Assembly (NCBI GenBank): GCA_002633005.1
Contig: NMRA01000861.1
Span: 53,589-116,991 of the forward strand
Origin: Phoronis australis
Lineage: Eukaryota > Animalia > Phoronida
DNA: 63,403 bases
Direction of reading: 5' to 3'
A program made the translations under genes and the position numbers. Each line of letters begins with the position of its first letter. The stretch's first letter is position 1. The notes beneath the pieces are model-generated. The model saw only the letters and a program-made list of their open reading frames with translations, had not been told where the DNA came from and ran no database searches. Positions 1,530 through 38,206 of this stretch are shown in pieces.

Positions 1530-2261
1530 ACTAATGGTGCATCTACATAGGTCAGAGCGGCGACAACAAAGAGTATCTAGTCCAGGACATTCTGAAGGGT
1601 GACTGGTACAACACCTGATAACAATTTATATTGTTTCAGTCTACCTATGACACATTCAACATGAATCCTTTCGCGAACAATTCTACCGGTTTTGGTAGCT
1701 GCTTTGTTGCTCAACTGTTGTCCATGAGTAAATGGGGGAATGTTGAGAGTTGCACCATGCAGTGCTAACAAGTCGCGTATAAAAAAAAACCCTGTCTGCC
1801 ATTATATCATCAACATATTCCACACGGTCTAGAAATCCTAATACTTCTGTTATTTGCCAATCAGAAATGCATCCAGTCCATAAACTGGAGACGAAGCAGA
1901 AGCCACCAGTAGGAGATATGCCAACTAAGGCTTTAAGACTATTACGGTGCTTATAGGACGACCATGTAATACGCTGTGAGGAAGGCAAACTGGGGCGTTG
2001 CACGTAGATTTCTGTGCAATCAATAATAGCCCGTGTTCTCTTGAAGTACTTAGATGAACTAGGAAGAGTTTTCCAAGTTTGATTTTTGTCTGGCCAAGTA
2101 ACAAGAAATTGCAACTCATGATAAAGCAAATTGATCCATATTGCAAAAATATGACTCACTAGAGATGAAGAAATGCCAAAAGAGTCAGCGATCATGTCTA
2201 CATCAGTAGCACGCCTCATTCGTACTAGTGTCATAACAAGCTCTTCAAAGACACTGAGCAA
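1530..2261 (-). pseudogene. Harbinger/ISL2EU DDE_Tnp_4 transposase core, frameshifted near 1785
   Basis: HTH (LVRMR..DMIADSFGISSSLVSHIF), IIDCTE, WSSYKHRN, GCISD, IMADR, RIHVECVIGRLKQY. Confidence 0.85.
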
Positions 2262-9249: not shown

Positions 9250-10168
9250 CTGAAGAAAAGGGAATACAGAATCATCATACAACGGCTTAAAGATTGTGGG
9301 TGCAGATCTGGGGCTGACATGTGACTATTACGTTGGGACACACATGTACTTCAGTGGCAAATGATTTTCTTTTTGACTCTGTATTTTTAGAGGGAATATG
9401 CGTAATTCACCACATACTCTTGCATTTAAATTTCATTGCATGCTTTGGGGTTATTGATATAAGCACTGCAACAAGCGGTGGTAAAGTCATGTGGACCAGA
9501 CAGGTTACAGGTTACACAACATCGATTGGAACAAAAAAATAAAGTAATGAGAAATTTGAATATTCCATGATAGATTTAAGTTCTAAAGTATGCAGAGTCT
9601 AAAATTGTAGGGAATAAGTTACCACAAATAACCCTCGGTTTTTGAGGAAAATGGTCTGTGTTACCTGATCCCAAAACAAAAGAAGGCAACTACAAAAATC
9701 CAGGCTCTGTGGTAAGTGGCATTCACAGGTGCTGGATGGGGAAAAATGCACTGTAACACCTAATTCTTAAATATATAACTTAAACGGGTATTTAGCCACA
9801 GTTTAGAAGGTAATGTTAAATTCGGCTTTGAGGTTTAAAAACGTTACCACACTTGCCTACCACAAATTGTGACTAAATGAGCTGGCAACAAGAAATGCAC
9901 ACATGGGCCATTTTCAAAATCCCGATTTTACAGTTGGTCTTATTATACTTGTTGGAAAGTGAAATCAAGTCCTACCATGGTACAGAATATTACAAGATCT
10001 ATTTGACAAGCTTAATTTATGTTTCGTTTTTTGGCAGCCTAACACTGGGAAAAACTGTTTTGAGACTTGTAGTTATCTAAACTGAACTTTGTCTTTGGCG
10101 GCATTCAAATAGTACACACATTCTCGCTTTAAATCTGCTAAGTCTCATTAAAATGGAATAATTTAGCA

Positions 10169-10278
10169 ACTGACAGCCTACTTCCCTAAGACTGACAGCC
10201 TACTTCCCTAAGACTGCCAACCTACTTTGCAAAGACTGACAGCCTACTTCCCTAAGGCTGACAGGGTACTTCCCTAAG
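10169..10278. repeat. Minisatellite, 5 x 22 bp (ACTGACAGCCTACTTCCCTAAG)
   Basis: Head-to-tail units read directly, no spacers. Confidence 0.9.
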
Positions 10279-10354
10279 GACTAGAACTCTAGACTACATT
10301 CAATTAAAGGATAAATCATTTAAATTTAAAAACCGTGAACAAAGTGAGTCTAAC

Positions 10355-10443
10355 CCTTCCGAACACTGGTGAACATCTTGTCCATCAACTCCCAACATCT
10401 TAGGAATGCTTGGTCCACACAGATCAACATCTAACAAACCGAC
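10355..10443 (-). CDS. NUBP2: NUBP2 internal exon
   Basis: Hand translation [29 protein letters not shown](G); ttgcag acceptor, gttag donor; 89 nt. Confidence 0.93.
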
Positions 10444-10729
10444 CTGCAATGAAATAAATGTGTAATTTCACTTCAGACTACTGACAGCTTTCACTGAAAC
10501 TTCAATTTATAGTAACACAGGCAGTACGGTTGCCAATATCAAACATTTTACATACAACTCTTTAACATCGTGAAAGCACTAAAGTGGCACCCACTTGATC
10601 CAATTTCAAAGTCAGGGGGTCATGACAAATGGATTTAACAAAGACAATATATAACCTTCAACCAGGGACATCATTGCCGAAGTCATTAGATCATCCCACA
10701 GAACAATAACGACAATTACAAAAGAATTT

Positions 10730-12010
10730 AAACAAGAGCAACGCGGAGCATTGAAATGCGCCCATGAATGCACTACAAATGGTGTGCTTTTAGGGTTGTT
10801 TATTTGTATCATCAAAATGGAAACTAGATGGTCCAAAAACATACAATCCATCCAAAAACAGGAACAAGCCATATTTCAAAAAAACCGGCAAGGAATTTCA
10901 GAGAAACAAAGGAAAACAGAATAAAATGAAATTGCCACTAGTGGGCACAGTGTCCACTGGATTCGCCTGAAAGTGGTCGTCGTCTGTTGTTATCTTCATA
11001 TAAATACACTTACTAAATTTAGTAAAGATCCTTCAGTGGGTTCAAGAGATACAACTATGGGCGCAAAACAAAACTACCACTAGGAGGCGCCACAGTAATC
11101 AGTCACCATCATCAAAGGTCGTCTTCACACTGAGAACATATATGCCAATTTTCAAATGATTTGGTTGATACAGGGATGGACACCAAAAACAAGATTTGAA
11201 CACAGCAAAAGTGGCCACAAGGTGGTGCAAAATACCTCGATTCCATCCAAAAACAGGCAGATAGCATCATCACACCAATAGATGCTTATATTTAAAACTT
11301 TATGAAAATCCGACTTTTGAAGATACAAAGGTAAATTTAAAAAAATAAAATTGCCACTAGGGGCACAGTGGTAGTCGGATCTGTCCAAAAGTTGTCATCG
11401 ACCGTTGTTAACATCATGTAAATTTACTTACTAAATTTTGTAAAGATTCTGCGAATGGTTTAGGAGATACAGCCATAGGCGCAAAAAAACAACTGCCAAT
11501 AGGAGGTTACACAGTTGTCAAAATCGTAGGAAAATCATCGTAAACCATCCTCTTCATAGTAAGCAAATATATGCCAATTTTCACAATCATCCTGTGAGCG
11601 GTTTGGTTGACAGAGAGGTGGATGCAAAAAAAAACAGACTCGAAAACGGTAAAAATGGCCACTAGGTGGCACAAACTATATCGAATCCATCCAAAAACGG
11701 GACGATAGTGTCATCTCACTAATGGGTGCCCTTTTACCACATTTTATGAAAATCCATTCAGGACTTTTGAAGATACAGAGGTAAATGTAAAAAAATTAAC
11801 TGCCACTAGGGGGCACACTGGTAGTCGGATCCGTCCGAAAGTTCGCTCATGCCGTCCCATTCATAAATGGAACATATGTGCCAAATTTCATGAACTTATG
11901 TCAAAGGGTTTTGGAGATAGAGCAGCGAACGCTGGACAACGGACGCCGCCCGGACGGACGGAGATGACCGCATAATGCGTCCATGTATAAATATGTGGGC
12001 GCATAAAAAT
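10730..12010. mobile_element. Helentron-like non-autonomous element (HINE/DINE-like) with internal ~420-450 bp tandem units
   Basis: AAACAAGAG end with ATGCGCCC subterminal motif; opposite end has GGAC microsatellite, hairpin ATGCGTCCA...TGGGCGCAT and an A run; unit tgccactag.gggcac at ~10933, ~11352, ~11801. Confidence 0.6.
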
Positions 12011-12046
12011 GCTATGAATTCCAACTACTCTAAATCTCAATTCAAG

Positions 12047-12530
12047 CCAAGTTCCATTTGGCGACCTGGCAACTCCGTGAAATTCGTCAGAAGTCATGCG
12101 AAAGTAACATGCTCTACTCGCAGTATCTTACGTGTACCCTCGCAAATTCTCCTGTAAATGTGTGTAAAATCACTGTCTAACTCAAGTCCTCCCTTCCTCC
12201 CAACACCGAACCAACATGCGACACGGACGATTGCATACACTGGTGGTGCGGTGTATTTCACCGCCTTGTACTATTTTTGTTGGACAACTCCGACTTCTGT
12301 CTGTTTACTTCCAGTCGTAATTTAAGCGTGGGTTTGACATGTGCTGACTGCTTTGGGTGCAAATGCACTGATTTCAGAAAATAAACGAAAGCATTGTGAA
12401 TCAAAGGTAATGAATATAGGAAAGCCGTTAAAATGAACTTTGAAACGAACTAAGGGAGAATTAATGTCCGACTTTGATGATCACAGTGGCGACTTCCGAT
12501 TTTTACCAGGTCGCCAAACACAACCTCTGG
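12047..12530. mobile_element. Possible MITE
   Basis: Inverted repeat TTTGGCGACCTGG (~12057) / CCAGGTCGCCAAA (~12506); no TSD found. Confidence 0.35.
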
Positions 12531-13015
12531 TCACAACTAAAGCGCTGTTTTCCCATGATAGAATTATCTGGCAAAATGGGAAATGTTTGCAAGTAAATTC
12601 ATTATTATAAGGTAAAACTTCTCAGGTTTAGGCCAGTGAAAAATTTTTTATTTTGCTCCAGATTGTAGCTTGAACCACATTTCATGTTGGAAATAAATTC
12701 AAGAATTATGATAAATGACAAATAATCATTTTTGTGTTATACACTATGATGGAGACACACGGAATGTAGCACTGGCAGCAACTTTTTAAAATTTCATGAA
12801 CTGCAAAGTCAATTTTCAGACTGTTGATAGGCAATGCAGTCAATTTTCAGACAAAACTGAGACGATACAATACCCGATATTTGAGAAATATGATGAACAA
12901 CATGTCTACGTCCCAATGTTTAAAATCAGGAAAATTCAATTTCAGATTAATTTTCGGAAAATTCCAAGTTAAAAAGCCTGTTCAAAATGGGAGATTTTTT
13001 ACCACAGTATGTTAC

Positions 13016-13137
13016 CTTCTTTCCTACATGTCTCAAGCCTAAAGCCAGCTGGGTAGAGACCGTGCTTTTACCAACGCCGCCTTTACCAGATAGTACTAGT
13101 ATTATGTGTTTCACCGACAACAAGTTGTTAATATCAC
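13016..13137 (-). CDS. NUBP2: NUBP2 exon with Walker A; the upstream start exon was not located
   Basis: Hand translation (G)[40 protein letters not shown]; ttcaag acceptor, gtaac donor; 122 nt. Confidence 0.93.
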
Positions 13138-13569
13138 CTTGAACAACAAAAACAAAAGATAGAGCTTAAATACATTGACGATTATTTACACAGTTTTGGA
13201 TAAAATTATATGATTTCAAAATTGAAATTTTGCTTTTCCAATTTTACTTCATTGTTAGTATGAGGTGTTCAAGGTCATCTAATAATAATTTGAGCCTTAA
13301 AGAATTACAACAAAAAAACAAATGGAAGTGGTATTTTTCCTAAACTAAAAATTTGTTCCACGTGTCCCTGATAAAACATTTGTAGGTTAAGGTAGAATCC
13401 AACGAATTCTTAGAATAGTCGGATAGGTGGCTTCATCAATTAAAATTGATTTGAGAACCAGTTACTATCACTGCATAACAAAATTAGTTAACTTATGAAA
13501 ATATATATCTTATGCTTTTAGGCTCCGTGGTAGCTTACTGCCATATTTATAAGCATGTTTCATCAACTG

Positions 13570-14200
13570 ACTACAGCCAGGTCTTACATCTAGAATTCCA
13601 ATACGCCGAGCAGAAGCCGGGGGAATCTATTGAGAATTGGGCATGTAGGTTAAATAAGTTATTTTTAAAAGCCTTCCCAAACCCTTCGGAGCAAGAAAAA
13701 GAAGATCTTGTTTTCCGGTTCTCCCTTCGGTTACGAGACAAGGTAGTAGGTACGCAGGTGATGAATTCATCTCCTTCGTCCCTAGCTGAGGCAGAGTCCA
13801 AGGCTGCATGGTTTGCTATGACCAAGCGATTGATGGCCAATCAAAACTGTCGGTCTGTTTGGTTCGAGGGCTCACCATCGTGTCCAGACGATGCTTCGGT
13901 CAACCTGGTTTCACAGCAGAAAAAGCCTGCCTTAAAGTTTTCTCCACTAGCATCCTCTGACTCAAGCTCTGCGGTTGAGTCTAGGCTACATGCTTTGGAG
14001 TCTCAGATGGCTAAGGTCAACTCCGAAATATGAGGTCTTAAAGGAGACAACGGGAACTTAAAAGTATGTCCCAGACTATGAGTTCAAATTTTAGGGGCAT
14101 TACCTCAGATTTGTCGAGGGTATTAAAGGTACTGGATTCTAATCCCAGGCCATCTAAATCCCCTCCAGTAGTATGTTTTAGAGTGCAGGGCTTGGAATGA
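13570..14200 (+). pseudogene. Ty3/Gypsy-type Gag fragment (capsid C-lobe, coiled coil, eroded knuckle)
   Basis: FQYAEQKPGESIENWACRL..L..KAFP...FRFSLRLRD resembles the Gag major homology region; VESRLHALESQMAKV coil; VVCFR remnant at ~14170. Confidence 0.7.
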
Positions 14201-14329
14201 CCAATGACAAAAAACGCGGAAACTTTTACGGCCCAAATCATGCCCGATAACTAGCCTTGAAATGATCAATGTGAACCTTTCCTCGACAAAAATCGGGAGG
14301 ACTAAAAAAAAAAAGTTACCACCATCAGT

Positions 14330-15124
14330 AGCAGTCCTCGATTTGGCTATAGATACCCATTTCCATTTGGATCGCTTGTCAGCATCCTGGGCTCAGCCAC
14401 ATCTCTCTAAGACTAGGATGCTGACGATAGACCAAATGCTCACCGCCCAGCTGCCACGGGCTTCTCAGAAGCCTGTACAGTTGGTCGGTGGGATTGAAGT
14501 TTTCTGCGATGTGGAAAACTGGAAGTAGGTCGAGGCTTCGCGTTTTCCACATGGCTGGAAAGCTGTGATGGGTATCCACCCCAAACAGGTTGGAACAACG
14601 AATCCCGGTGTTCTAGAGCGTCTCCCCCAGCTACAAAAGGAGGCCTTTGTAGGTGAGGTCGGTCTCGATGCCCGGGATGATTTGTCCACCCCAAAAGAAG
14701 CTTTGGAGGAGATGGTGCGGATCTTTCCGGAGGTCCGGGCCAGTTCCTTCAACCTTCACGGTTCTCCCGGCAATCCACGCTTCCAGGAGGGCCAGGACTT
14801 TGACCTCCTGAAGCACCACTGTGGTGCAGACTTGGATTTGCATCTCCATTGTTTTGTAGGTGCGCCTGAGGATGTACTTCGGTGGTTGGGGGACTTCAGA
14901 AACTGCCATTTCGATTTTGGCGGACATGTAAAGCGGTTTCTAAACTTCCAATAATAAGAGGTTCTGCTGAATCAACTTCTAGAGTCCGATTCACCGCCTC
15001 GCCATTGGGCAAGCCCCAATGGTGCCCCAATACCTGGGCGAAGTGGCTATGGAGGTAGCGCAGCATTCTCGTCGTTCGCTGCGCAACATCCACCAGGAAC
15101 GCCAGGCGGCTTTACCAACGCTAA
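14330..15124 (+). pseudogene. Intronless TatD-family nuclease with stops and frameshifts
   Basis: IDTHFHLD, GIHP, VGEVGLD, HLHCF and LLESDSP in one frame through stops; after frameshifts, YLGEVAMEVA and NARRLYQR*. Confidence 0.85.
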
Positions 15125-15596
15125 CAAATTGTTACAGGGGGGTATAGCATCCTGGTGTGCCTGGCTCATAACTTACTAAAGTAGGGGGTGGGCGGTTAAC
15201 TGAGCATGGGCGTTAACCCGAACGATTACGGTATGCCCAACGTTTTCTCCTAGTCGTTTGGGTAATTGCCCGTTATTGTAAATTCTGAGGCTGATTACGG
15301 TCTCTGGGTTTGTGCCCTACCCTTGGTCCTAGGAGAATTGTGGTGTCCTTTTAAGTAGTTATAAGTAATTAAATAGCAAATTGGCCTATTATTTTTATGT
15401 AGTAGTGTTTATTCGTTAAACCTATACATTTGCCATAAGTTATGTTTCCATACTATATGTAGTCTATTTATATTATCCAAGACTATACTTCCTATAGTAT
15501 TATGTTTTGGTTGGTGCTACGTAGTTTATTTTTGTTAAGTTTATGTTGTTTAAGTTGTTTTCCATATAGTCTATGTATGTTAAGAAAGACTATATC

Positions 15597-15757
15597 ATTT
15601 TTTATACAATATTAGCCTCGAATGGCAGATACAGCCATGTAATAACCCACAAAGTTATCTCACTCGCGAGATAACATTTTGGCGGGAAACCGAGGCCGGA
15701 TTCGAACCCGGGCCTCAAGAGTTGCGAGTCGCCGACTTTACCACTATACCACTCAGC
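15597..15757 (-). mobile_element. tRNA-derived SINE
   Basis: A box TGGTATAGTGG and B box GGTTCGAATCC with tRNA spacing; D and anticodon stems do not pair; ~90 nt unrelated body ending in an A run. Confidence 0.6.
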
Positions 15758-17009
15758 GGCTGACATCATCGAACGTGAAAATGGAATACTTAAATGAGCA
15801 CGCGCAACAATCGCATGTTTAGCAAAGGGCATTGCACTGACATTTATACACTATGAAAAATGAGACACATAATTTCCATAAAAACAATATAATTTTAATT
15901 CCGCGAAATTTTTCTCTCGTGTTCTCTCACTTGTAAATCACCGATCTCCAATTTGAATGCGGGTATCGTGTCGTCGGGATCCTTTGACTTGAGCATTACA
16001 TTCAGTTACTAGTGGTTACCTACTTTAGCAGACGATATTTTCCGGGTCGAAGCTTAGCATGATGAAATGTGTAGTGAGCTATAATAGTTGCTAAACCTTA
16101 ATTTATAGATTCACTTTATTTCTATTTTGTTTCATTTTTCAATTGGTTTTGAGTAAAATCATTATTTGACAAAAAATAGCTAGACTTTTTCTTAAAAGGT
16201 CACGACCTCCGACCCCGGGCCTCTGACATAGAAAGTAGTTACAAAGCCGAGGCTAATCAAGAAAAGTAAATCGATTCATTGCAATGTTTCTCGTCCAGTA
16301 TGTGGTATAAATAGATTATTACGTTATCAGTCCTTATCCTCCGTTATCTACAGCCCAAGTGGATTTTGGAGAATTATCGCCCTCGGGGCGTTCGCCATGT
16401 AATAATCTATTATATCACTACTAAAGTATTATAATACTCATTTTATTGGCCAGTATGCTTTTCATCGTTCAGTTCCTTCTTAGCTTTTAAAAAACGAATG
16501 TATGTATATTCTCACCAGGTCATCACCAACAATCAGAGTGTTGTCATATCATAGTCCAGAATTTCCATGCCCCCCTGGTACTTATATTAGTGAGGCATAT
16601 TTTTGTTTTTATTTCTTTTTTATTCGTGTCCGACTCCTCCGTTGGATATATGCTATGACTGCATGTGTCTCTTTAGTTTTCATGTTTTTTTTAGTAGGGG
16701 GGAGAATAGTTATATTTAAATTTATTCAGAATAGTCATGATCAGAAATTGGTACTTTACTAGGGTCACTCCACATCATTTTAGTTATAGGATTTAAAGTC
16801 ATATGACCCATTTTTAGACGTTTTAAAAACATCGTGAATCTGCATAAAAACCATTGAAACGTACTCTCTGACACTTAATTAGAACTTTTCGTAAGTATGC
16901 GGTCGATCTGCTGCCTGCACATATTTTTTCTTTTATTTTTTATTTTCTTGAAATCTGCGTGATCAAAACAAACAAATGTTGCCCATAATGCTGTGCAGTT
17001 TGACCTTTC

Positions 17010-17079
17010 GGCAACTTCCGAGACAAATCGTCAGCTGTTTCCGGTACTGCTTCGAAGAACAGAAGTTCACCTTAACCAG
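17010..17079 (+). promoter_or_regulatory. Candidate promoter / non-coding first exon of a plus-strand gene, divergent from NUBP2
   Basis: CpG-enriched, ETS-like ACTTCCG and TTTCCGG, donor CAG|gtaatt at 17080. Confidence 0.4.
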
Positions 17080-17737
17080 GTAATTTATTCGTTTCTTAAA
17101 CATTTTGATGACGATATTGCTCCCTGTATGAGCAGAACAGTCTATTACTCTTAGAATTAGATGAAACCATTACCAGTGGGAAAATTACGTACTGAATTCG
17201 ATAGTAATCATTGGGCTCTAGTCGAATCTGCAGTGGTATCCTAGCCAGCCAGCTAGTGGTATCAAAATACAGCCAGATGCCACTGTGTGTTTTTCTTCAA
17301 TAGACCCCGAAATTCACACAGCCAGGGTAGTATCTTTAGTATACAGATTTGTACCAAGGCTAGCCGTAGCCCTAGGCCTATCAATGCTGTGACTGAAAAA
17401 GAGTGTAATGTTATTGTGGTTGGATAGACCCTGTTTGTCACTCGATGGTCGTGAGTTGAATTCTATCTCCTGGCAGTTTTCAGACTTTGGACTTGAATTG
17501 CAAAATTATTCATGGTTCTTCATTCACCAGGGACTATATACTCTACTTGTATATTGTACTAGCAGGGGCACATTGGCGGATTTAAGGGGGGGGGGGCAAG
17601 GGGGCAAACTTGGGAAGTGCTGGTAGGCTGAAGGTTGTTGCGAGAAAAGTGAGATCATACAAAACCATGGTTGGGAATGGGATGCAACAAATTTGATGCC
17701 TGTTCTTCGTTGAAGAAATCTGGTTCTCAAATTACAG

Positions 17738-17805
17738 GACACTGGGAGTGGTCACATCATTACAGGACAATATACTATGAATGGGACCTCCTCAAAGGCA
17801 AAAGG
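17738..17805 (+). CDS. Candidate exon of an unidentified gene
   Basis: ttacag acceptor, GG|gtataag donor; DTGSGHIITGQYTMNGTSSKAK(G); phase fits the 21029 exon. Confidence 0.3.
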
Positions 17806-18019
17806 GTATAAGCCAAAGGCAGATCAATAGGAGCATTAATAAAGGTCGAGCAGGTTATATCTTGTACTATCAGTGATATGGTCTCCATTGGGTAAATAAA
17901 GGGCTAGGGACAGGGTAATTTGAGTGTGTGACTAGGCCCTTGCAGACTCACTTTATCAAGAACACAATCCATCAGTTTACATGGCAGAGGGCCTAAAGAG
18001 TGCTTCGAAAAATCATCTA

Positions 18020-18420
18020 TCTTCCTTGAATGTCAGCTGTTACAGAGTTCTAGCATCAGCTTCCGGACGACCATTCACACAAACCAGAACCTATCGTGAC
18101 CACTACAGATCCTCCACCTGTCCTGAGCTCTTCCGAGCCCTCCCCTGCTGCAGAACCACTCGGGAACGTCGCAAGCCCGCCTGGCAGGATGATTTCGTTA
18201 CTTCATAATACATTACTCCCTCCATAACTTAGGGGGAGGTAGAGAATTATATGATAGTTCACACTATAACCACTAGGTGTCTCTGTAGCTAGCTTCCCAC
18301 CATATTGTCTGTTAGAGTATGATCTCATATCCGAGTGAGTGCATGTGTAGTAGTTCAGAGAATTAAATGTTACGTAATACACCCCCAATATGAGGAATTG
18401 TAGTAAACATGTTTGTTCAG
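18020..18420 (+). mobile_element. 3' end of a separate LTR retrotransposon (pol tail, PPT, LTR start)
   Basis: RTTRERRKPAWQDDFVTS* resembles pol C-terminal tails and is followed by the purine tract TTAGGGGGAGG at ~18229. Confidence 0.5.
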
Positions 18421-18427
18421 TATATCC

Positions 18428-20010
18428 TGTTATGATTCATGTATGTCACTATATAAGTATATGATCGCATGGATTGTAACAAAATGTAGTATCAGTAGAA
18501 GAGTATGTAATAAAACTATTATCCTCCTTCAGACTAGTATTATCCTTGGACTGCGTTCTCGCACTGCGTCGCGCATTCAACGTTTCTAACCGAACAGAAT
18601 GCCTTCCACTGCTAGCACATCAACAGGTTATGGGCCCAGCACGGCCAGCAGTTCCAGCATTAGCGTGAGTAAAAGTTCAGGAAGACTGAGTCGGCTGTGT
18701 TTTGATGGAGATGAAAGAAGGTATGAACTGTGGGAAATTAAGTTTCTCGGACATTTGAAATCGGTAGATCTGCAAGCGACAATTGAATCCGACGCGGAAA
18801 CCGTCGATGATGAGAAGAATGAAGAAGCATTCTGTGAACTAGTTCAATACTTGGACGACAAAAGGTTGAACTTAATAATTCGAGATGTGAAAAGTGACGG
18901 CTGTGAGGCACTCAAGGTTTTACGAGAACATTATACGGGGTGCAGTAAACCAAGAATAATTGGGCTATACAGCAAACTGACGGCACTAAAAATGCAAGCA
19001 AATGAGTCTGTGACAGACTATCTGATCAGGGCAGAATGTGCCGCAACTTACCTGCGAACAGCGGAAGAGGTTATAAGCGATAGCCTGTTGATCGCAATGG
19101 CCATGAAGGGATTACCAGAAAAATTCGGACCCTTCATCGTTAATGTGTCTCAGAACACAGATAAAATAGCGTTTGGAGACTTCAAAGTGAAGTTAAAGTC
19201 TTTTGAAGAAAATGAAAATGCGAGACAACACAGAAGACTCCGTAATGAGGTCGGTGACCTACCGACGGAAGAAACCAGTGGGCACAAGGCACAAGATTGC
19301 AGAACTCGAACAAGATGGTGCAGACTGTGTAAAAACAGCTCCCACAACTTCGAGGATTGCCGAAGAAGGAAAGGCACAAGTAAAGCCCACAAAGCAGCTG
19401 AGGAGCAAGACCAGCAGGGAAGTAGATTTAATGATTTCAGTTTTAAGGTTAGCGATGATCGATGTTAGTAAACAAGCTGTTAGTTGATACTGGGGCAACA
19501 TCCCATATTGTTACAGACAGGTCCAAGTTTAAATGTTTTGATGAGAACTTTTCACTGCATAGAATTGGCAGATGGGACTAGGACAACTGGTATAGCACAG
19601 GCACGTGGTGATGTTGACATTAGGATAATAGACGGTAAGGGCAGTGTCATCTGTTCCACATTGACAAATGTTTTATACATACCAAGCTATCCACAGGAAT
19701 TATTCTCTGTCCAGGCTGCTGTTGCTAATGGAGCTTCAGTGATTTTTGAATCAGAAAATGCAAAATTAATTGCTCGTGATGGGACAGAATTTGAAATTGA
19801 AAAAGGTGGAAAATTTTATTATTTGGATTATTTGGATGTATTAGTTTCTGACACAGCAAAAAAGTCAGAGAGCATGACCTGTGTACATGGCACAAAATTT
19901 TTGGCCATTGTAACAATGATGACGTATTGAGATTAGAAACAGTTGTTAGAGGTATGAAAATTACTGACAAGGCTAAGGTGGATTGTGACGTTTGTACTCA
20001 GGGGAAAATG
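18428..20010 (+). mobile_element. Ty1/Copia 5' half (GalEa-like): LTR, PBS, gag, protease, GAG-pre-integrase; truncated
   Basis: TGTT...AACA LTR ending at 18625 (start uncertain); PBS GGTTATGGGCCCAG 18626-18639 (half-tRNA-iMet type); FDGDERRYELWEIKFLG, CRLCKNSSHNFEDC, a DTGATSH-like remnant, LTNVLYIPS, CDVCTQGKM. Confidence 0.88.
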
Positions 20011-20925: not shown

Positions 20926-21028
20926 GCATTCTGTATAAGGTATTCAGCTTTTGAAGTACACTTGTTAATGAAGAATTTTTCTCTTATACATGGCTATGAA
21001 GAAAATTTTATTTTGATTTTTGATTCAG

Positions 21029-21154
21029 GAGTTTTGGTTTCTTCGTCATAAATGAGGAACTGGCAAAAGTCTACTGTAATGATGTGCTGGCCTTCGACAA
21101 AGGTACCAACTACAACAAAAGGCACCTACCCCAACATATTTTCGCAATGCAAGG
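21029..21154 (+). CDS. Candidate exon of an unidentified gene
   Basis: T-rich tract and ttcag acceptor, GG|gttatg donor; open frame SFGFFVINEELAKVYCNDVLAFDKGTNYNKRHLPQHIFAMQG. Confidence 0.45.
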
Positions 21155-21487
21155 GTTATGTTACAAATCGTACTGCTTTATCTACTTTGCTTGCAGTCAA
21201 ACAAATTATGTTATTTACTCAGGCAACATATTTTATGTGTCTAATGCATATATTGGTTTTGTCTACTACTTAGTACTCAGATAAATGTGATTTCTTTGTG
21301 GTACTAATAAACAAAATTTATGCCCAATACCATTTCTTAGTTTCATACTGAAAATCGGATGAAGACTTAAATGTGATGAAACAGAACTGGTAAAGTTGAT
21401 CCAAACCAACATTCCATCAACAATAAAGTAATTTAATTTATACCATTTTCCGCATTAGACCTCCGATCAATAAATTTCTTTACCCAG

Positions 21488-21566
21488 GTGGGGATGGGTT
21501 TCTTGGCTTGTAACAAATTCACCTACAGAAAATGACAAGCTGTTTCAAGGAAACTTGATAAACTGA
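21488..21566 (+). CDS. Candidate terminal exon of the same gene
   Basis: tttctttacccag acceptor; in phase: WGWVSWLVTNSPTENDKLFQGNLIN*. Confidence 0.4.
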
Positions 21567-24444
21567 GGTTTGAGATATAACGAACTATCAGTTCTTTCTA
21601 ATTGTACTTGAGTAAGGAATGTGCCAAGACAATGAATAGTCAAAATCAAGCGTTGGTTTAATTGAAGGAAGGCAGGTTTATAGCAGCTTTAACATCAATG
21701 ACAATCACATTAATGAACAAAATGAAGTTTCACTGCCAAAGTTTAACCTGTATAACATCAAATGCATTTCACTGCAGCAATTCTCAACACAACAGAAATG
21801 TAAATGCAAACAAGAGTTGCTGCATGACAAGTAACTAATCGAAATATGTTTGAGGTCATGGACACATTTATTTTAATTACGTAGTCAATTCGCACAGCCA
21901 CGTGGATCAACAAAAGCCAATGATGATGATTGATAGACTCAACATGAACCAAGTTACATGAACACTTCAATTACAAAGTAGGTACTGTATCACAGTTTTG
22001 GAGTCAAATGTAGGCAAACAGTGGTCAAGGATTGTTGGTTTACATATATAAAAAGTAAAATGTCAGTCTTATATGCTGTACGGTAAATGAGTAAGATCAA
22101 AAATATAGCCATGTCCTTTTGTATTGACAACAGTCTATATCCATATCAAGCTACTGTGCAAAGATGACTTTAAAATTAGTGTCAAATGTTCACTGAAGCA
22201 GTGATAGTTTCTTTTGATAGATCAAATAACATTTGTTGTCATTGCAAACCATTGATCGTCAAGGCAATGAACTGGGTGGCCCTGGAAGTCGTGTCAAGAT
22301 TGTGCACGCCTTGTTTTTCTCTCAAGCATCTGCTAATTATGGACACCGATGGCACTGGAGTATAGACCTTTCTTAATCCTTGACAGCATTACTCTTGGAT
22401 TTCTCAATGAAGTACCTATGAAGCCTGTAAGTGTAAAATATTGTGAAAAGTTACAATATAATTGACCACTGAAACACTAAAACCAAAGATACAGTGCAAA
22501 GAAAACCACCATTGGGTACGAGTAATGATAACTGTATCTATACCACCAACTGAATGCTAGTATCAACAAGTGTGAGAGGTTGCAAGTTAGAAAGATGGTG
22601 CAAGAACTAATGCACGTATTGCCACTTGACTCTTTGTATAAATCTTCAACACAGTATAACTTTTGAAGGCTATTACAAAACACTTTATGGTTTAAGTGGA
22701 TCCTAGAGTTCTAAGACAAGAAATTGAACTCATGGCAACATGGTTATGTCCCAAGTGCTACTCAGCAGCCGTTGTATGAATATGTTACCACACAACTGTT
22801 TTATCAAGCCCAAACAATGGTCATACTATTATCGTCTTTTAACAAGCAGTAAGAAACCTACATTGAGAGACAATAGAGTTACATTTTCACAGAAAAATTA
22901 CTGCGACTATAAACCCTGTTATCTGCGCAACTTCACTTATGATTTTAACCACTTTCCACATTCAGATGAGAAATAAGTTTTGGTATTGCAAAGAACTGTC
23001 AGTTCATTATGGTTGTGACCATGTCAGGTGAATGAAATGGCTTGCTGTGACACGTCATCCTAAAGAAACTCTCAAGTAGTAACAAATTGGTGGAGATTTT
23101 CAAGCCCAAAGTTCACACCTATTTTTACCGAGGAACAATTCGAGATCAATATCATACTAATGGTACAAGGTCTAAATGAACAGTTGGTTTTCGTGACATA
23201 AGGCATGCCTATATCTACTTTAAATTCCAATAGAGCATAGAGCCTTTACAAGAGCAGACACAAACCTTTGATCCAGTTTGTGAGGATGGAGGTGACAAAG
23301 AAGATAAGGACAAGGGTGAAAAACAGCTCTGAATCCCTGCAAGACGACAATAGTGGCCTTTGTAAGAAGACATTCAGTTTAAAATTTATTCTGAGGCCTC
23401 TACACCGGAAACTCAGTCTTGTACATATGAATCTGAAACAGTGACATTGAATCGACAGATGGAATCGTAAAAGGGCAAATTTTCAAAATAAGGTTTTTAG
23501 AAATCGTGATTGCTCCCCACACCAAAAATGATGCACAGAATTTCAACCAGCAGCTGGAGTTCGCTTGCATTTATACTAGTTGTAAGCGAGTTGAAAATTT
23601 TCACATGCAAATTAGTTACATTACAACTGTTCTTTGCTCAACTGGACATCCTCCAAAGCACTGATACATTAGAATAAAAATATCACACTGCAGTAGGGTT
23701 TACACAAACCTAACATAAATAATTCATTCAGACAAATGAAACACTGTTTCGTGCATTTCAATGTGCATTTTCATGTTCTAATGTGGAACAGCAATGATAA
23801 CAACATCTGCGAAGTGCACTCATCCTTCAAAAATATCGCTACTATTTGTCTGGTAAGCAGCTTGGCTGTATTCATAAGTTTAGGTGTAAAAGTCTAGGTC
23901 CAAGCAGTTTTTTTAGTAAAAGAGCTCGCTACAGGGGGTTATTTTGAAAACACAGATATGTAAATGCTTTGATCTACGTACTTTTGTAAAAAGTCAGTGT
24001 GAGGGGTTGCTGGTGCATGGTGGTAGGGGTAATGCGTCGTTAGAATCCCCAACACTCCGAAATATTGGGAACCCCATTTTGGACACCCTATTTTCGAAAT
24101 CCTGGGTGAATCAATGAATAGAAATTGAACATGCTTTAAACAAGGAATGTTTAAATACTGTAAATATCTTTGGATAGGATTGTGAGTTGTGAGTTGAATA
24201 AAATGTGAAATGTCGCTCTGCGAGATATTAAGGAAATGAATGAAACAATACCTCAAGGTTTTTTCAGGTAATGACCAGTCTGGGACTCATGCAAAGAAGT
24301 TTGTAGAGGGCGTTGTCTAAACCACTCATTCTGAAAGTATAGATAACAAAGGAGGGTTTAAATACAATTTGTCTCATTTTACCAGGAGCAATCACAAGAT
24401 TTAAGAATGTACTTTCAGTCAATTTGACAAACCTTTATGCTTAA

Positions 24445-30411: not shown

Positions 30412-30763
30412 TGTAATATAATGAGACACTGCTCTCCACGTGTATGTAAACATGTCTTAAAATATTCCCAGGGGATGTTCATACTCCTCCACGTGCATGC
30501 AAACATGTCTTAAAATATTCTCAGGGGATGTGTATACTTCAGTGGTAGTCGAGATTTCTAAAGGATGTACATATCTCTAGAGTGGCAATTATATGGAGAT
30601 TTCTCACGGGATAGGCACATTCCTGGTGTAGCAAATCTGAGAAGAGTGGCAGTTATGCAAGAATTTTCTATAGGATAGTCAATTAGCTGGTTGTAAGAGA
30701 GATGTACTAAAAGAGGTGGGACCATCACGTGATGGCTCCAAAGGTATTATTTAAGACACTAAC
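30412..30763 (+). repeat. 5' LTR (visible part, cut by the gap)
   Basis: Nearly identical to 39070-39423; contains an internal ~57 bp tandem duplication. Confidence 0.95.
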
Positions 30764-31254
30764 NNNNNNNNNNNNNNNNNNNNNNNNNNNNNNNNNNNNN
30801 NNNNNNNNNNNNNNNNNNNNNNNNNNNNNNNNNNNNNNNNNNNNNNNNNNNNNNNNNNNNNNNNNNNNNNNNNNNNNNNNNNNNNNNNNNNNNNNNNNNN
30901 NNNNNNNNNNNNNNNNNNNNNNNNNNNNNNNNNNNNNNNNNNNNNNNNNNNNNNNNNNNNNNNNNNNNNNNNNNNNNNNNNNNNNNNNNNNNNNNNNNNN
31001 NNNNNNNNNNNNNNNNNNNNNNNNNNNNNNNNNNNNNNNNNNNNNNNNNNNNNNNNNNNNNNNNNNNNNNNNNNNNNNNNNNNNNNNNNNNNNNNNNNNN
31101 NNNNNNNNNNNNNNNNNNNNNNNNNNNNNNNNNNNNNNNNNNNNNNNNNNNNNNNNNNNNNNNNNNNNNNNNNNNNNNNNNNNNNNNNNNNNNNNNNNNN
31201 NNNNNNNNNNNNNNNNNNNNNNNNNNNNNNNNNNNNNNNNNNNNNNNNNNNNNN
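30764..31254. other. Assembly gap hiding the rest of the 5' LTR, the PBS and most of gag
   Basis: 491 N; ~470 bp of LTR alone is missing, so the true gap is probably longer. Confidence 0.95.
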
Positions 31255-31674
31255 GGGCTCCGGGACGTGAGAATAAGAGAGCACGTCCTACGTTCAGGCC
31301 CAACAACTCTCAGGGACGCCCTTAAAGTTGCTGTCCAAGAAATACACCTATGGGCGCGAATGAATTTAAAACCAGGAGATAACAGGGAAATCAGCCCCAT
31401 GGACATAGATAAAGTATCCCCTCCTCAAAGATGCAGGATTTGCAACAGAACAAATCATAGGACGAGGGACTGCCGGCCGCCCAGAACTGTTAACGCTCTA
31501 GACAAAGAACCAATCAGATGTTTCTTTTGTAAAAAACCTGGCCACATGAAACGTGACTGTTTTAGTTTTAAAAGATTTTTGGCCGCCCAAGCGAATCAGA
31601 AGCCAGTTAATTACTCTGACAACCCAAGCCCTGCTGATACCACACCACATGACGTTAACCCACAGGGAAACTAA
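31255..31674 (+). CDS. gag: Gag C-terminus with two CCHC zinc knuckles (5' partial)
   Basis: SPMDID, CRICNRTNHRTRDC, CFFCKKPGHMKRDC. Confidence 0.9.
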   Translation, partial: GLRDVRIREHVLRSGPTTLRDALKVAVQEIHLWARMNLKPGDNREISPMDIDKVSPPQRCRICNRTNHRTRDCRPPRTVNALDKEPIRCFFCKKPGHMKRDCFSFKRFLAAQANQKPVNYSDNPSPADTTPHDVNPQGN

Positions 31675-31739
31675 TGTGCACTGACTCGAGAGCTTCCGCG
31701 GGTCAGGATGATGTTGTAACTTTATGTTTTTTGGGAAGC
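31665..31739 (+). promoter_or_regulatory. -1 ribosomal frameshift signal at the gag-pol junction
   Basis: In-frame G GGA AAC directly before the gag TAA; pol is in the -1 frame; stem CTGACTCG/CGGGTCAG at 31681-31706. Confidence 0.75.
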
Positions 31740-34700
31740 GAAGATAGTATTCACGTACAGGTGGGACAGACGCGAGTCAGAGCGTTAATTGACTCGGGTG
31801 CTGCAATATCCGTTATTTCGGAAGTTACATTTGAAGAGCTTAAACGAAAAGACTTGGTAGAAATAGTTAATCGAAAACCTGTAGTTCAGACAGCGAATAA
31901 TCAACGTTTGAATGTCCTCGCTTGTGTCCTGTTAAGCTTAAAAATCGGAAACAATATTCTCAAGCATGAATTCGTGGTGATTCGAGATGTAAATCGAAGA
32001 ATGATAATTGGAAAAGACTTTCTTCATAAAAATAACTGTTGTGTCTACTTTGATCTCAGAATGTTACGAATAAAAGAATTTTACACACCCTTAATTCAAG
32101 ATTCGCTGGTTAAGTCTTATGTTAGAATAATCAAAGAAATTATAGTTAAACCTTATTCCAAGGTTGTATGTCGTGCCAGAAGCTGCGCCGCCAGGGGTAG
32201 CAAAAGACAACAAATATTCCAGGTGTCACCTTTAGCAACCGGATTCCTAAATGCAGAACCTGGCTTATCAGTTTCGAACGCAGTAATAAAGCCGGGCAAG
32301 GCCGGAAAATTCCCGGTGGAAATAATCAATAATTCTGGCCGATATATCAAGATAAAACGAGGAGTTGCAGTAGGACAGGTTGAAGAACTAAGTAATGCAA
32401 ATATTGTGAATGTGCTAGAGAAATCAACATCAGCCCAGTCGGCTAGTAAACAAACGTTGGACTTATCCGATATTGATACACCTGATGAGTAGGTTAGCTT
32501 AGTGAAAACGTTATTAAAACAAAATAGCGATGTTTTCGCAGCAACCGATCTCGATTTGGGGAAAACAAACACGGTACAAATGCGCATAGACGTACCGGAC
32601 GGCACAGTTGTCAAACAGAGGCCTTATCGGCTTCTGATAGCAAAACAACAAATAGCTAAAGAAGCGGTGGATAAAATGCTTACTGCGAAGGTCATAGAAC
32701 CATCTCGATCCAACTTTTGCTCACCTATAGTATTAGTAACCAAAAAGGATGGTAGCGTAAGGTTTTGTGTAGACTATAGGAAACTAAACAGTGTAACTAA
32801 AGGTTATTCGTTCTTTCTACCGAAAATTGATGACATATTGAACGATCTTAGGGGTTCAAGTATTTATAGTTCATTGGACTTACGTAGTGGTTTCTGGCAG
32901 ATTCAAATGCACCCTGATGACAAAGAAAAGACCGCTTTCTCTCCAGGATTTTCAACTGGTCACAATCTTTACCAATTTCAAGTTATGCCATTCGGACTTT
33001 GCAATAGTCCCAGTTTCTTCCAAGAACTTATGTCAATCGTTTTAGAAGGACTTCCTTTTGCTCGGGCCTATAACGATGATTGCATTATTTACAGTAAAAG
33101 TGTCGCTGAACACGTTGAACATCTGAAAATCGTTTTCCAACGTCTCAGAGAACATAATTTGAAGTTGAAATTGTCCAAATGCCAATTTCTTAAGCCTCAA
33201 ACGAACTATCTGGGCTTCATAGTAGATAAAGAAGGGATCCGCCCAGACCCAGCCAAAATTTCGGCTATTAGATCAATGAAACGACCAGCCTCGGTAAAAG
33301 AAGTAAGGGCACTACAAGGAATCCTGTCATATTATCGAAGGTTTATTCCTAACTTGGCAGGCATTATGACTCCATTGACTGAACTGACCAAGAAATATGC
33401 CAGATTTAAATGGACACCTGAATGCGAAAACGCTTTTAAATTTATCAAAGAACATCTTTCCGCAGTTCCGATGCTAAATTATCCTGATCCCAAATTGAGT
33501 TATATTATATACACCGATGCGAGTGATTTTGCAATTGGGGCCTGTTTGGTACAAAAGTGTCAAGATGAAGATGTTGAAAAACCTATCTACTTTATGTCAC
33601 AAAAATTGACTGACACGCAAAAGCGTTGGGCAACCATTGAAAAGGAATGTTTTGCAGTATTGATGGCCCTTAAGAAATTCGAACACTACATTTGCAATTC
33701 CAAAATCACGCTTTTCACGGACCATATGCCTCTCATTTATTTGCTTAAAAGCGACATACAAAATAAGAAAGTGGCGCAATGGTCGGTACTTATCTCGGCT
33801 TATGATGTTGAAATTAAGCATATTCCGGGCAAGGATAACACGATAGCTGACCTGTTGAGCAGAGCGCCCTCCAACGATGATAATGCGATTGACGAGGAAA
33901 CCCTCGACATAGACGATAGGACTTTTGAGGTTCAGGCTCCGATAGCACAAGTTAATGTAGTAGATAACAGCAGAATTGATCCTAAATCTCATGAAATGGA
34001 GAGTCCTCCAATACCTAATTTTACCTCTGAATTGCAAATGCCTAAGTTAGAAATGAATATGCAAGAGGAACAAAAGAAAGATCAAGAGTGTAGGACAATA
34101 ATCGATGAACTGTCGTCTCCTAAGCCTAGCAAAAGAATTGGAAATAAGTATTTACTCAAAGAAAATGTCCTATATTACGTTTCCGACGATCACGGCGACG
34201 TCAAGGTTTGTCTGTACGTCCCCGAACATTTACAGTCGCTTGTCATCAAACAATATCACGATCAACTGGGGCATGCAGGGATAGATCGAACATATCAGTC
34301 GTCTAGGAACTGTTATTTCTGGCCTAGAATGTTTAAGGACATTGAGAAGTATGTTTCAGAATGCGTTACATGCCAGGAACGAAATCTAAAAACAGTTAAA
34401 TCTCTGCTAGGGGCGTCTAATGTTGTGAACGGCCCCTGGCAACAAGTAGCAATAGATTGTGTCGGTCCTATGAAACCATCACCCAGTGGTAACCGATATA
34501 TTTTGACTCTGACTGATTGGTTTTCAAATTACACGTTGTTGTATCCGATGCCGGATAAGAGTGCCGCCACAATCGCACGAATCCGGACCACTGATATCTT
34601 TTGTAGATTCGGTATAATGAACATTTTGGTCTCAGACAACGGCTCTGAATTTGTAAACAAAACAGTAAAAGATGTTTTGGAATCATTTAACATTCGGCAT

Positions 34701-35795
34701 GTTACCACAAGTTTTTAAAATCCAAAAGCAAATGGCCGAGTCGAACGATCACACAAAGTACTTGGTGACGTTTTGAGTAAATTATGCCGTGAAAATCCAG
34801 AACAATGGGATGTCTATCTCAGTCAAGCAGAGTCATGCTTAAATTTTCATACTAACTATACTGGGTATAGCAGTTATTTTGTTATGTTCGGTAGAGACCC
34901 TAAACTTCTTGTACATAACATAATGCGACCACGTGCTAAGTACGTGGGCGAGGAAGAACATAAGGTTATCCTACAAAACCAACATAGAGTTTTTAGGACA
35001 GTTTATCGAGTGATAAAACACCATCAGAACAAAAGATTAGCTACCGCGAATAAGGATAGAATTTTGGTTGAATTAGAAATTGGCGATCCCGTGTACCTTA
35101 AAAATAATTCTAAAACCAGCAAACTGGACCCTAAGTGGACGGGTTATTGGCGCGTCCTAGAACGACTGTCTGAAAAAACATATGTCATCAGGAATCAGTT
35201 AGATGGGACGGTTACCAAGTCGCACATTGACAACTTGAGGTGGGCACAAATCGACGATTGGAAGGTGAATGACGACGATTATCCACAAATGAGGAGAGCG
35301 CGCTACACCGTCCCTCCCAGCTCTAGTGAAGAAAGCGATGTGTCTGACGACGAACCACAGCAACGTCTGCAGGATCATTTGCGCCAAATGAAGGGGGATT
35401 CATCTTCAGATGACTCTGACGTTCCCTTAGCGGAACCTCAAAGAAGACTCCAACAGAGGGGGCAAGTGAAGACGTTGGCTCAGACGAAGCCAGCACCTCA
35501 GATGGAGGATCCAGGGACTCCATCATCTGAAAGCGAAGGACCTGAGTCCAAAGCCAAGTCGGATCCGATGACAGACCCCTCCTCACCAAACGACGAACAG
35601 TCTATGCCGTCGGATGGGACAGATATGGACGTTGCCATGGGACCACGACCAGACGATGATGCCATGGATGTGAACGTCCTCGCGCGATTGGACAAAAGGA
35701 GAAGCCGAAAGTGCAGAAAAACGACCCAAAATTCCTCCGCGGCTTATTTAGATTTGTGTCGCATGATGTTAGAAACATTTAGGAACGGTCGATAA
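31674..35795 (+). pseudogene. pol: pol (protease, RT, RNase H, integrase, acidic tail) with two in-frame stops
   Basis: LIDSGA; RFCVDYR, LDLRSGFWQ, MPFGL, YNDD; TDASD, EKE, TDH; HHCC, IDCVG, SDNG, VERSH; stops at 32490 and 34716 with the frame conserved. Confidence 0.93.
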
Positions 35796-36029
35796 GTAAT
35801 TAAGGTTTCAGATTTCATCAGAACCATTTATTTAGTAGCATACTTATACTTGAATATATTTGAATATTAGAGACGGGGGTGTCTCCCGAAAACGATATAG
35901 CCATGGGCACTCATACGTAACGTATCTGATCTAAGGGTATCCGAGTCAGTTCTCGGCATGGCAAGTACTTTTAGTAGAATGAGGAGCGAGTTAAGTAACC
36001 TCAGTGACTATTGTTGTTTCAGAGAGACA

Positions 36030-38016
36030 ATGCAACGATTAACAGGTTTGCTGTTGTTGGCTGGTATCGTGCAATGCGTCATTGTCAAAAATGGGGTAGT
36101 TTTTGAGAAAATTAATTTATTTTATAGTTCGTGGGGACACTGGTGGGTGACGAGTTTTATTGACCTCAGCGAATTCTCTGAGTTCATGTCCCAGTTTTCC
36201 CGGGACATAGAACGTGCTTACTATACGCATACTCAGGTAAAGAAAAAGTACGCTGACCCCAAAGATGTCAATTTCTTGGGATATTTTTCCAGATTGAGAA
36301 AACAAATTGATGATATCAGATTCACGAAAGAGGCCGTCGACGAGTTGTTGACTGGCTATAACACTTTGGCTCAATTTCGAGGTAACAGAAGCAAACGGAG
36401 TCTTCTGCCTTTCATGGGAAAAATTAGTCATTGGCTATTTGGCACAGCCACTGATGATGATATTAAAGCTATTAGGGAATCGATTGATATGATAGTGAGG
36501 AACCAAAAGAGGATTGTTACTAACGCATTAAAGAGGGTAACCGTAATGAAAGCCACTAGAACCGAAGTAAATAGAAATCGAGAGACCTTGAATGACTTGA
36601 TTCTTTCGACTTATGAAATAGAACAACGTCTTAATAACGTGACTGATATGCTACACGATGAAATACAGGATTTGTCGGTCTTCACCCAGAGTTACATACA
36701 CTTAGAACTCATTTTAAACCATCTGGAATTGGCTGCGCAAAAAGCCTTAGGCTATTTGGCTCCCATTGAAAGTCAAATAGGAATATTGTCTCTGGGACAA
36801 GTTACTCCAGCGGTGGTTCAGCCGGAAGCATTACGCAATATATTAAAGGACATACGAACGAATATTCCACGCCATTTAAAATTACCTTTTGATCCTGACA
36901 GAGTTGTTTCAATATTATAAGTCTCTCCCGTATCATACTGCGTGGGAAAATGGACGAATCTTGGTCACGTTTCGGATTTCATTAATTGACACTTACGCAC
37001 GTATGGAATTATTTCAAATTCATAATTTGCCAGCTCCCTTCCCTAATTCCAACCGCTCTCACATTTTGGCGAAGTATTCATTGGAGGCCACGGCGTTAGC
37101 CATAAACCCAGAACGAACGTCTTATGCCTTACTAGATTATGCCAGCATGAAGGCATGCTCATCGCTTAATTTCTGTGAGACCCGACAACCGTTACGCCCT
37201 GTTAATTTGAGCAAAGATTGTGTGGTGGCTCTGTTCATGAAGTTTGACGATACTATCAAAAGGCTCTGTCGTGTTTTTATTAAAACAAATACAGCCTTAC
37301 CACAGGCCATATATCTGAGATCTGGCTGGTACGCTGTAGTTAGTAACGAGGTTACAAGATTTGCCCTCCTGTGCAACCACAGTCGCACTAACACTAAATC
37401 AGTTACGGTGGACATTGGGGTAAATATGATACACGTCGATTACGGATGCCAGGCCACACATCCAACTATGTCCCTCCTGGGAACTTTTCACAGGGAATCT
37501 AGATACGAACATCCTGATAGCTTCGCTCGAGTTTTGAGAATTCGAAAAGGATCCTTCACGATGTGGTCTCCTTATATTGCAGCCTTTCCTAAACATGTGG
37601 AAGCAAAAATACCGCCATGTCTCGCTCACTTAGCCGAAATTTCCCTGGACGGTTTAGTCACTGATTTACGAAACCTGGAAACTCCAAAACCTTGGACCCC
37701 CGATAATGAATTTTGGTTATAAGTCGCTCTGGGAGTAGCAGCATCGCTATTAATTTTGGGGTTAATTGTTTTCTTGAAACGTAGACAAATTGCACGTGCC
37801 ATACTTGAACAGTATCAGCCTGTGGTAACCGATGGTAGTTGTCCAGTTGCCACTGCACCGCCAGCGTTCGCACTCATGAGCGCACCGAACGATGCCCGAC
37901 AGACGTCACCGGCTGGGGAGAAACCCAGTGCTGACGACCACCCGACCGTATCGACTCAATGGAATGGCAAACCAATCGAGATGAAGCAATTCGTCCGACG
38001 TATGTATCCTACCTAG
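36030..38016 (+). pseudogene. env: env: class I fusion glycoprotein of baculovirus-F/gypsy type; one frameshift (~36900) and one stop (37720)
   Basis: Signal peptide MQRLTGLLLLAGIVQC after a tttcag acceptor (36022); furin site RSKR (36387-36398) followed by fusion peptide SLLPFMGKISHWLFGTA; heptad region; Cys-rich region; TM VALGVAASLLILGLIVFL-KRR. Confidence 0.88.
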
Positions 38017-38206
38017 GATCCGGAAACTGGAGAGGGCCTGAAGGAAACCTCCATGTGACTCCGAGCTGTCTGTAGCCGTCGTAGTAGTACTACTGAACCT
38101 TACAAGTAGAGTATGCTAGATAGTCGTCAGAAAGGTGGTGGTTATTAACATTGACAATTGTTACGATATCTAAAGGAACTTATGAAACTATTGCAGGAAA
38201 AAAACA

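Follow-up and report, generated by a model that had tools for sequence, protein, structure and literature searches.

A dead, truncated Ty3/Gypsy copy in Phoronis australis, most likely from LTR elements whose third open reading frame ends in a TatD domain

The described elements closest to those considered here are Juno and Vesta of bdelloid rotifers, which are Gypsy-type, carry an enzyme rather than env in the slot of a third open reading frame (ORF3), and have kept the catalytic residues of that enzyme, with function unproven in the account given in PMC5408684. Our elements resemble them in each of these respects. They differ in the enzyme itself, since ORF3 of Juno and Vesta encodes a DEDDy 3'-5' exonuclease (RNase H-fold) or a GDSL esterase, whereas here a TIM-barrel TatD ends a long multi-domain ORF. 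They differ also in history: PMC5408684 reports recent, repeated acquisition and no significant departure from neutrality, whereas the TatD elements combine purifying selection with co-divergence with integrase across several animal groups. Compared with the Ty3/Gypsy (Metaviridae-type) norm, the relatives of our locus share a gag with a zinc knuckle, the order PR-RT-RH-IN, a PPT, and LTRs, but add a HhH at the N terminus of gag, a PHD finger after integrase, and the TatD-bearing ORF3. Among host proteins, animal TATDN2 (as described in PMC10711561 and PMC10085689) is most like the element TatDs: both are of the HxH class, have a C-terminal TatD behind a long N-terminal region, and share the motifs CD/E-P and HxHC, and TATDN2 is the best-scoring host group. 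Element TatDs differ from it in occupying a separate branch, in their other N-terminal domains, and in being multi-copy and element-borne, with a predicted activity.

No description of a TatD-bearing LTR element was found in the literature searched, which left supplements, subscription journals, Repbase, and Dfam outside its scope, and a term look-up in the main text of PMC6238403, PMC8556966, and PMC8220671, which survey LTR elements of molluscs and annelids, did not return "TatD". TatD as ORF3 cargo of an LTR element therefore appears to be undescribed, although enzymatic ORF3s as such are already known from the bdelloid DEDDy and GDSL cases.

The window, by which we mean the whole 63,403-nt stretch of Phoronis australis DNA that was analysed and to which all coordinates below refer, contains such a sequence at 13547-15550. 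We read it, with a probability of about 0.8, as a dead, 5'-truncated, most likely internally deleted Ty3/Gypsy copy whose intact relatives carry an ORF3 ending in TatD, a predicted active two-metal nuclease that may act on RNA and probably derives from a single capture of a TATDN2-like host gene. Missing from the copy are the 5' LTR, one half of gag, pol, and the front two thirds of ORF3. Its parts and immediate neighbours are as follows.

13016 to 13137, minus strand: host NUBP2-like exon (P-loop GKGGVGKST), a neighbour outside the element; Pfam ParA/NUBPL, E 2.3e-11; acceptor side at 13137, donor side read from the sequence.
13400 to 13481 (limits approximate), no strand assigned: moderately repeated short sequence left of the broken 5' end; depth 4,923 in bin 13399-13481 versus 51-65 in the flank, loose ends at 13440.
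13547 to 14185, plus strand: 3' half of a Ty3/Gypsy gag, with the capsid C-terminal MHR-like region, a coiled coil, and a frameshifted tail ending at the start of the zinc knuckle (read from the sequence); placed by tblastn, a gag profile, and related contigs that start near 13547.
14186 to 14314, no strand assigned: one end of an unrelated, very high-copy, probably MITE-like repeat at the gag/TatD junction; summed depth 245,072 and 119,034 versus about 740-1,300 on either side.
14315 to 15124, plus strand: C-terminal TatD domain of ORF3, interrupted at 14526, 14952, and 14955 by stops and, after about 15000, by frameshifts; placed by motifs, Pfam, homologues, and the tree.
15136 to 15142, plus strand: PPT-like tract AGGGGGG, read from the sequence; it resembles the tract before the TGT start of the LTR in relatives L212, L213, L218, and L222.
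15143 to 15550 (limits uncertain), plus strand: probable remnant of the 3' LTR; related contigs span the stretch, with depth 2,122 in bin 15308-15390 that drops after 15390.
15173 to 15231, no strand assigned: 59 nt from another high-copy repeat, inserted with TA on either side; the two DNA runs each have contigs that join 15172 to 15232 (depth 781 in run X1), with mixed flanks behind 15233.

An earlier, sequence-only reading of this DNA had proposed that a gag is followed by a complete TatD nuclease whose hallmarks lie in order on one strand. Five of these hallmarks do share a single plus-strand frame (DTHFH at 14352, GIHP at 14571, GEVGLD at 14652, HCF at 14847, and ESDSP at 14982), but NARRLY at 15098 is in another. 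Completeness holds for the domain, which is nearly entire, but not for the gene: a middle domain typical of the family's ORF3 is missing from all six frames of the window, which thus keeps the end of a much longer gene. The segment 14529-14951 passes the Pfam TatD_DNase model (29.6 bits, cut-off 27, E 5.9e-7), and the domain read through with X at its stops matched 292 proteins at E<=0.001, 84 of them at E<=1e-10, among 1.84 billion representatives, the best homologue being 41% identical. No match was obtained with the unbroken TatD piece in a word-indexed search confined to longer proteins, and nothing fell below E 0.1 when pieces of the window were compared with PDB sequences. Five of the six metal ligands are clear and the LxxH histidine is misaligned; the N-terminal HxH (DTHFH) is the mark by which Class II TatD proteins are defined, and ligand roles are given in the same source (PMC10085689). 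The stops and frameshifts listed above agree with the earlier judgement that the copy is dead. Two candidate imperfect hairpins lie in the TatD coding region (14367-14436, 30 nt at 73%; 14500-14561, 26 nt at 81%), and Rfam gave 0 matches in 10000-20000.

Downstream, the sequence AGGGGGG-TATAGC is present at 15136-15148, about 11-12 nt past the stop at 15122-15124, as had been pointed out, and the plus strand of the window has just four runs of at least six G. The tract precedes TA rather than TG, and the LTR boundary is not among the loose ends listed; in the five of 23 relatives in which a PPT was recognised it lies about 140-620 nt past the ORF3 stop, versus 11 nt here. A PPT and LTR start at this position is plausible from the sequence. 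Related contigs skip the 59-nt piece within the putative LTR. A search of the window for a partner of the putative 3' LTR sequence found none, similarity to the element begins inside gag, and no empty target site was seen; this copy does not have the LTR pair and PBS of a complete element. Further, PR, RT, and IN are all missing between gag and TatD, as the earlier reading had noted; with no pol match in that interval, this copy is a remnant and not a complete member of Ty3/Gypsy.

What the gene looked like before its decay can be read from the family. In most of the 150 best homologues, TatD forms the C terminus of a long ORF. Pfam analysis of 65 of them found TatD in every one, a zinc knuckle in two, and a gag capsid or pol domain in none. 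Named members include uncharacterized proteins of Mya arenaria, Argopecten, Saccostrea, Diadema, and Elysia, as well as a "TatD family hydrolase" in Sedimenticola MAGs; in Mya arenaria, 13 members that are >=90% identical form a cluster spread over 11 different chromosome-sized sequences. The structural model of an intact relative (P0005) has two confident domains. Its C-terminal domain (pLDDT >90) is a TIM barrel that matches TatD crystal structures, YcfH being the best Foldseek hit (E 1.4e-14). The middle domain, seen for instance at L177:9430-9897, has a zinc-finger-like start (C-P-x3-C...H-x4-H) followed by a helical bundle, was modelled alone with pLDDT 89.6 and pTM 0.85, and occurs in 80 of the 150 homologues, including 66 of the 71 that are at least 450 aa long. 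It has no Pfam match common to more than one of 20 members, no PDB sequence match, and no Foldseek match at E<=0.001. All 21 context rows carry the same residues in the six metal-ligand columns (H, H, E, H, H, D), as do 47-48 of 48 further family rows, and HxH is found in all 21 and all 48, so that the ORF3 TatD is predicted to be an active two-metal nuclease.

The genomic context of intact members comes from 24 contigs holding family TatD, which we took from the three MAGs, among 380 prokaryotic genomes, in which family ORFs were found. These MAGs (G372, G373, and G253) contain many Gypsy contigs, about 21 in G372 (L177, L178, L187, L192, L208-L224), and NCBI lists their ORF3 products as bacterial TatD hydrolases; the element contigs are probably contamination from animal hosts. 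The layout of the relatives is that of a Ty3/Gypsy element, HhH-gag-CCHC / PR-RT-RH-IN-PHD / ORF3 / PPT / LTR, in which ORF3 spans 500-1100 aa and consists of low-confidence, probably disordered linkers, the zinc-finger-like helical domain, and a terminal TatD. It is read from distant relatives (best 41% identity) rather than from full-length copies of Phoronis australis. By Pfam, L177 and L179 carry PR, RT, RH, IN, and PHD in Gypsy order together with TatD in ORF3, and both have a gag with a zinc knuckle, with HhH seen in L179; RT is present in eight contigs. The two ends of L177 also form a repeat (98.9%), with a purine tract ahead of the 3' copy; a CA..TGG site is present as well, and a G-rich tract followed by TGT occurs in four more of 23 relatives, 300-620 nt past the ORF3 stop. 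Pol lies directly upstream of ORF3 in 16 of the 24 contigs, seven are uninformative because they offer too little or unusable upstream DNA, and one, L224, is a decayed deletion copy. An apparent pol-ORF3 deletion in L213 was rejected as an assembly artefact, its junction falling at an N gap, and is counted among the seven. Scans of metagenome, viral, and genome contigs with a generic TatD motif (alignment A1) gave ordinary, mostly bacterial TatD loci, in which the middle domain is absent, and family-specific scans of viral contigs gave no match.

This layout bears on two forms that the sequence-only reading had offered for the element. A Gag-TatD unit as a design of its own does not fit: the TatD of the relatives ends a separate third ORF behind pol, none of the 150 homologues matches the window gag, and the junction in the window holds a truncated foreign repeat. 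A pol-deleted copy does fit, since the relatives have pol between gag and ORF3 and the window has none.

The gag assignment, made earlier from an MHR-like region and a coiled coil, is borne out by comparison with gags of TatD-carrying elements: the window gag is 30% identical to that of L177 over 106 aa (E 3e-9, tblastn), and 13587-14030, coiled coil included, matches a profile of eight such gags at E 2.7e-16. Pfam by itself gave a weak PNMA match (E 0.084), Atlas matches were all under 0.9 and serve as a lead only, and a word-indexed search confined to longer proteins returned no match for the gag piece. Since gag and TatD both match the same element type, both stem from one type of element. 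They are less close together than the roughly 150 bp first estimated from gag and its coiled coil, with DxHxH 322 nt past the coiled coil and 167 nt past the end of the gag remnant. Moreover, 129 nt of this gap (14186-14314) derive from an unrelated high-copy repeat, of which only a piece is present, at the start of the gag zinc knuckle: 91 contigs, their flanks mixed, stop at 14186, an end visible in RNA reads too, and other copies of the repeat diverge behind 14227 and 14314. We infer that the repeat inserted at the zinc knuckle and that a later deletion took the remainder of the repeat, pol, and the front of ORF3, which would have placed gag beside TatD by accident. That the deletion came after the insertion is required by the presence of only one end of the repeat.

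Related copies in the same species were sought in Logan contigs of two DNA runs (X1 and X2) of one study, where depth cannot be read as copy number. Matches to both gag and TatD turned up at about 90% identity, the similarity starting near 13547, inside gag, and in X1 both have contig depths of about 690-800, versus 51 for the single-copy flank, a roughly 15-fold ratio that X2 does not repeat. Such similar depths are what one would expect if the short gag-TatD form had itself been copied many times as a non-autonomous family using the Pol of full-length elements, with the junction repeat a later insertion; the existence in another host of a gag-PR-TatD copy without RT or IN (L224) points the same way. 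However, full-length elements would likewise give equal depths of gag and TatD, and L224 is riddled with stops and has its breakpoint elsewhere. An intact gag directly before TatD was seen in 0 of 24 contigs and 0 of 150 homologues, and the single remaining end of the repeat needs a deletion after its insertion. One record from X2 (record 12) matches 14340-14527 and then departs from the window for 48 letters, which weighs weakly in the same direction. We consider a non-autonomous family unlikely.

The same data bear on whether gag and TatD came from different copies or subfamilies of one clade, inserted next to or into each other and joined by recombination or deletion. As this would predict, the joints listed include no read or contig that passes from gag to TatD without the repeat, and a joint from the end of gag to the start of TatD is absent from the 15 of 19 joints listed, although contigs cannot show absence and we give this little weight. 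Against it, the two pieces are on the same strand, in the correct order, at similar divergence from their relatives (about 10%), and at similar depth, so that one copy with one deletion is simpler, and two insertions seem to us quite improbable. Reads from 18-19% of each of three raw RNA runs of one study cover gag at a depth of <1 and TatD at about 1.5-2.7, mostly antisense to the element.

The remnant probably sits in an intron of a NUBP2-like host gene. The exon at 13016-13137 is real, but the scan for the upstream exon 1 that it needs returned two candidates, both weak and neither decisive. The surrounding DNA has several other features. Plus-strand RNA covers 16880-18400, where donor-like sites lie near 16891 and 17080, and may point to a divergent promoter that NUBP2 shares. 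On the minus strand, an expressed gene end at 20960-23340 has a long 3' region and a spliced joint at 22423-23265 (CT..AC). At 10731-12010 lie three diverged units, each of about 420-450 bp, of a very high-copy repeat that is strongly transcribed on one strand. Other mobile sequences include a DDE_Tnp_4 plus HTH transposase fragment (1683-2261, minus strand), a Copia-type gag with a Pol beta-barrel fragment (18590-19990; matching contigs at depth 500-700 in X1), and a young env-bearing Gypsy-type element at 30412-39422. The last has LTR pieces that are 99-100% identical, PR, RT, RH, IN, and a split baculovirus-F-like env, with stops in pol and a 491-nt N gap that hides the 5' LTR end and most of gag.

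The origin of the TatD was addressed with trees that lack TATDN1 and TATDN3 and in which all supports are SH-aLRT. In a quick IQ-TREE analysis of 110 TatD domains, the window falls inside a branch of 55 element rows (support 99), separate from 15 rows of host TATDN2 (98) and from 25 bacterial rows (100), the latter outgroup being 25 loci taken from two sets of contigs (18 + 7). An Elysia protein (P0187) entered as a host sequence falls with the elements in this tree and was regrouped. A smaller tree of 46 rows, which left out 64 of the 110, including the long rows P0140 and P0182, places its 28 element rows on one side of a branch (96) and rejects a grouping of the window with TATDN2 (p-AU 0.0036); the end branch of the window TatD is long (1.7). 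In line with the proposal that a retroelement lineage captured TatD as cargo, the domain thus ends ORF3 of Ty3/Gypsy relatives and the window nests among their TatDs.

The same trees weigh against a processed pseudogene of a host TATDN gene that landed by chance beside a gag fragment. TATDN2 is the nearest host paralogue sampled, and a foreign repeat does separate the two pieces, as such an origin would allow. However, the window groups with element TatDs and not with TATDN2, the gag is of the same element type, and both pieces have related copies in the species. Among other host paralogues, a family member searched against PDB matched TATDN3 at 24 bits, far lower, and TATDN1 was not among the matches listed. 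A host pseudogene is accordingly very improbable. The ultimate source was nevertheless probably a host gene, for the best host TATDN2 outscores the best of the 25 bacterial TatDs for all 22 element domains compared, which together with the shared motifs points to capture from a TATDN2-like gene; for the window TatD itself the margin is negligible (30.5 versus 29.7 bits, or 0.8). The element TatDs lie beside, not inside, the sampled animal TATDN2 branch.

Since then the domain appears to have been maintained. Its dN/dS is 0.138, 0.139, 0.159, and 0.170 in the four closest of 253 pairs, values that are not comparable with IN, RT, or gag, as dS is saturated for all pairs of those listed. TatD and integrase identities co-vary across 12 elements (Mantel rho 0.675, p 0.0008). 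A dN/dS of about 0.14, invariant ligands, and co-divergence with integrase identify the TatD as old, selected cargo, and the pattern fits one old capture followed by vertical descent.

For the function of ORF3 we offer a tentative proposal, drawn by analogy, which is the least certain part of our reading and has clearly less than even odds. ORF3 would be made as a protein of its own. Much like human TATDN2, its TatD would remove or trim the RNA of R-loops, or structured RNA, on the transcription units or the replication intermediates of the element, and so aid copying of the element. The human enzyme is reported to degrade the RNA of R-loops and hairpins, with little DNase activity and minimal activity on plain RNA-DNA duplexes, and to need its own N-terminal region for R-loop binding (PMC10711561). 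Two findings speak against a TATDN2-like role: the N-terminal region of the elements differs from that of TATDN2, and the elements keep their own RNase H. For the latter reason, it is also unlikely that the ORF3 TatD replaces RNase H.

The same element could instead use ORF3 for another job, with TatD acting on DNA as a 3'-5' exonuclease or AP endonuclease (like TATDN3 and YcfH) that cleans damaged or unintegrated cDNA, or counteracting silencing by degrading small RNAs or other immune-triggering nucleic acids. TATDN3, YcfH, and YjjV, which are Class II (HxH), have AP-endonuclease and 3'-exonuclease activity on DNA according to PMC10085689, and the best PDB matches by sequence and fold are of the YcfH type, a ranking biased by the fact that no TATDN2 structure was among the PDB matches. 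The additional zinc-finger-like domain of unmatched fold is in keeping with such a job, and a silencing role for nuclease ORF3s was raised in PMC5408684. Against action on DNA, motifs and scores favour TATDN2, which PMC10711561 describes as having little DNase activity, and we rate these other roles as slightly less likely still than the proposal above. As intact natural copies exist, the function of ORF3 is testable in vitro.

The copy in the window is itself only a fossil, and its interest lies in the family to which it leads. A TatD ORF3 under purifying selection across elements that are 30-60% alike places a second, unrelated nuclease fold at the ORF3 position. This suggests that a 3' nuclease is needed repeatedly, either for the Gypsy cycle or in conflict with the host. 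It also flags annotation errors, as these ORF3s are listed as host genes (13 in the one Mya cluster) or as bacterial TatD in contaminated MAGs. In a broader reading, which we regard as doubtful at present, an old Gypsy clade across molluscs and echinoderms would have retained an RNA nuclease of TATDN2 descent, joined to the zinc-finger domain whose fold is unmatched. This accessory gene would be dedicated to removing R-loops or to overcoming RNA silencing by the host. If true, retrotransposons would have an equivalent of the accessory nucleases of viruses, one that public annotations conceal under dozens of genes labelled "uncharacterized" or bacterial TatD.
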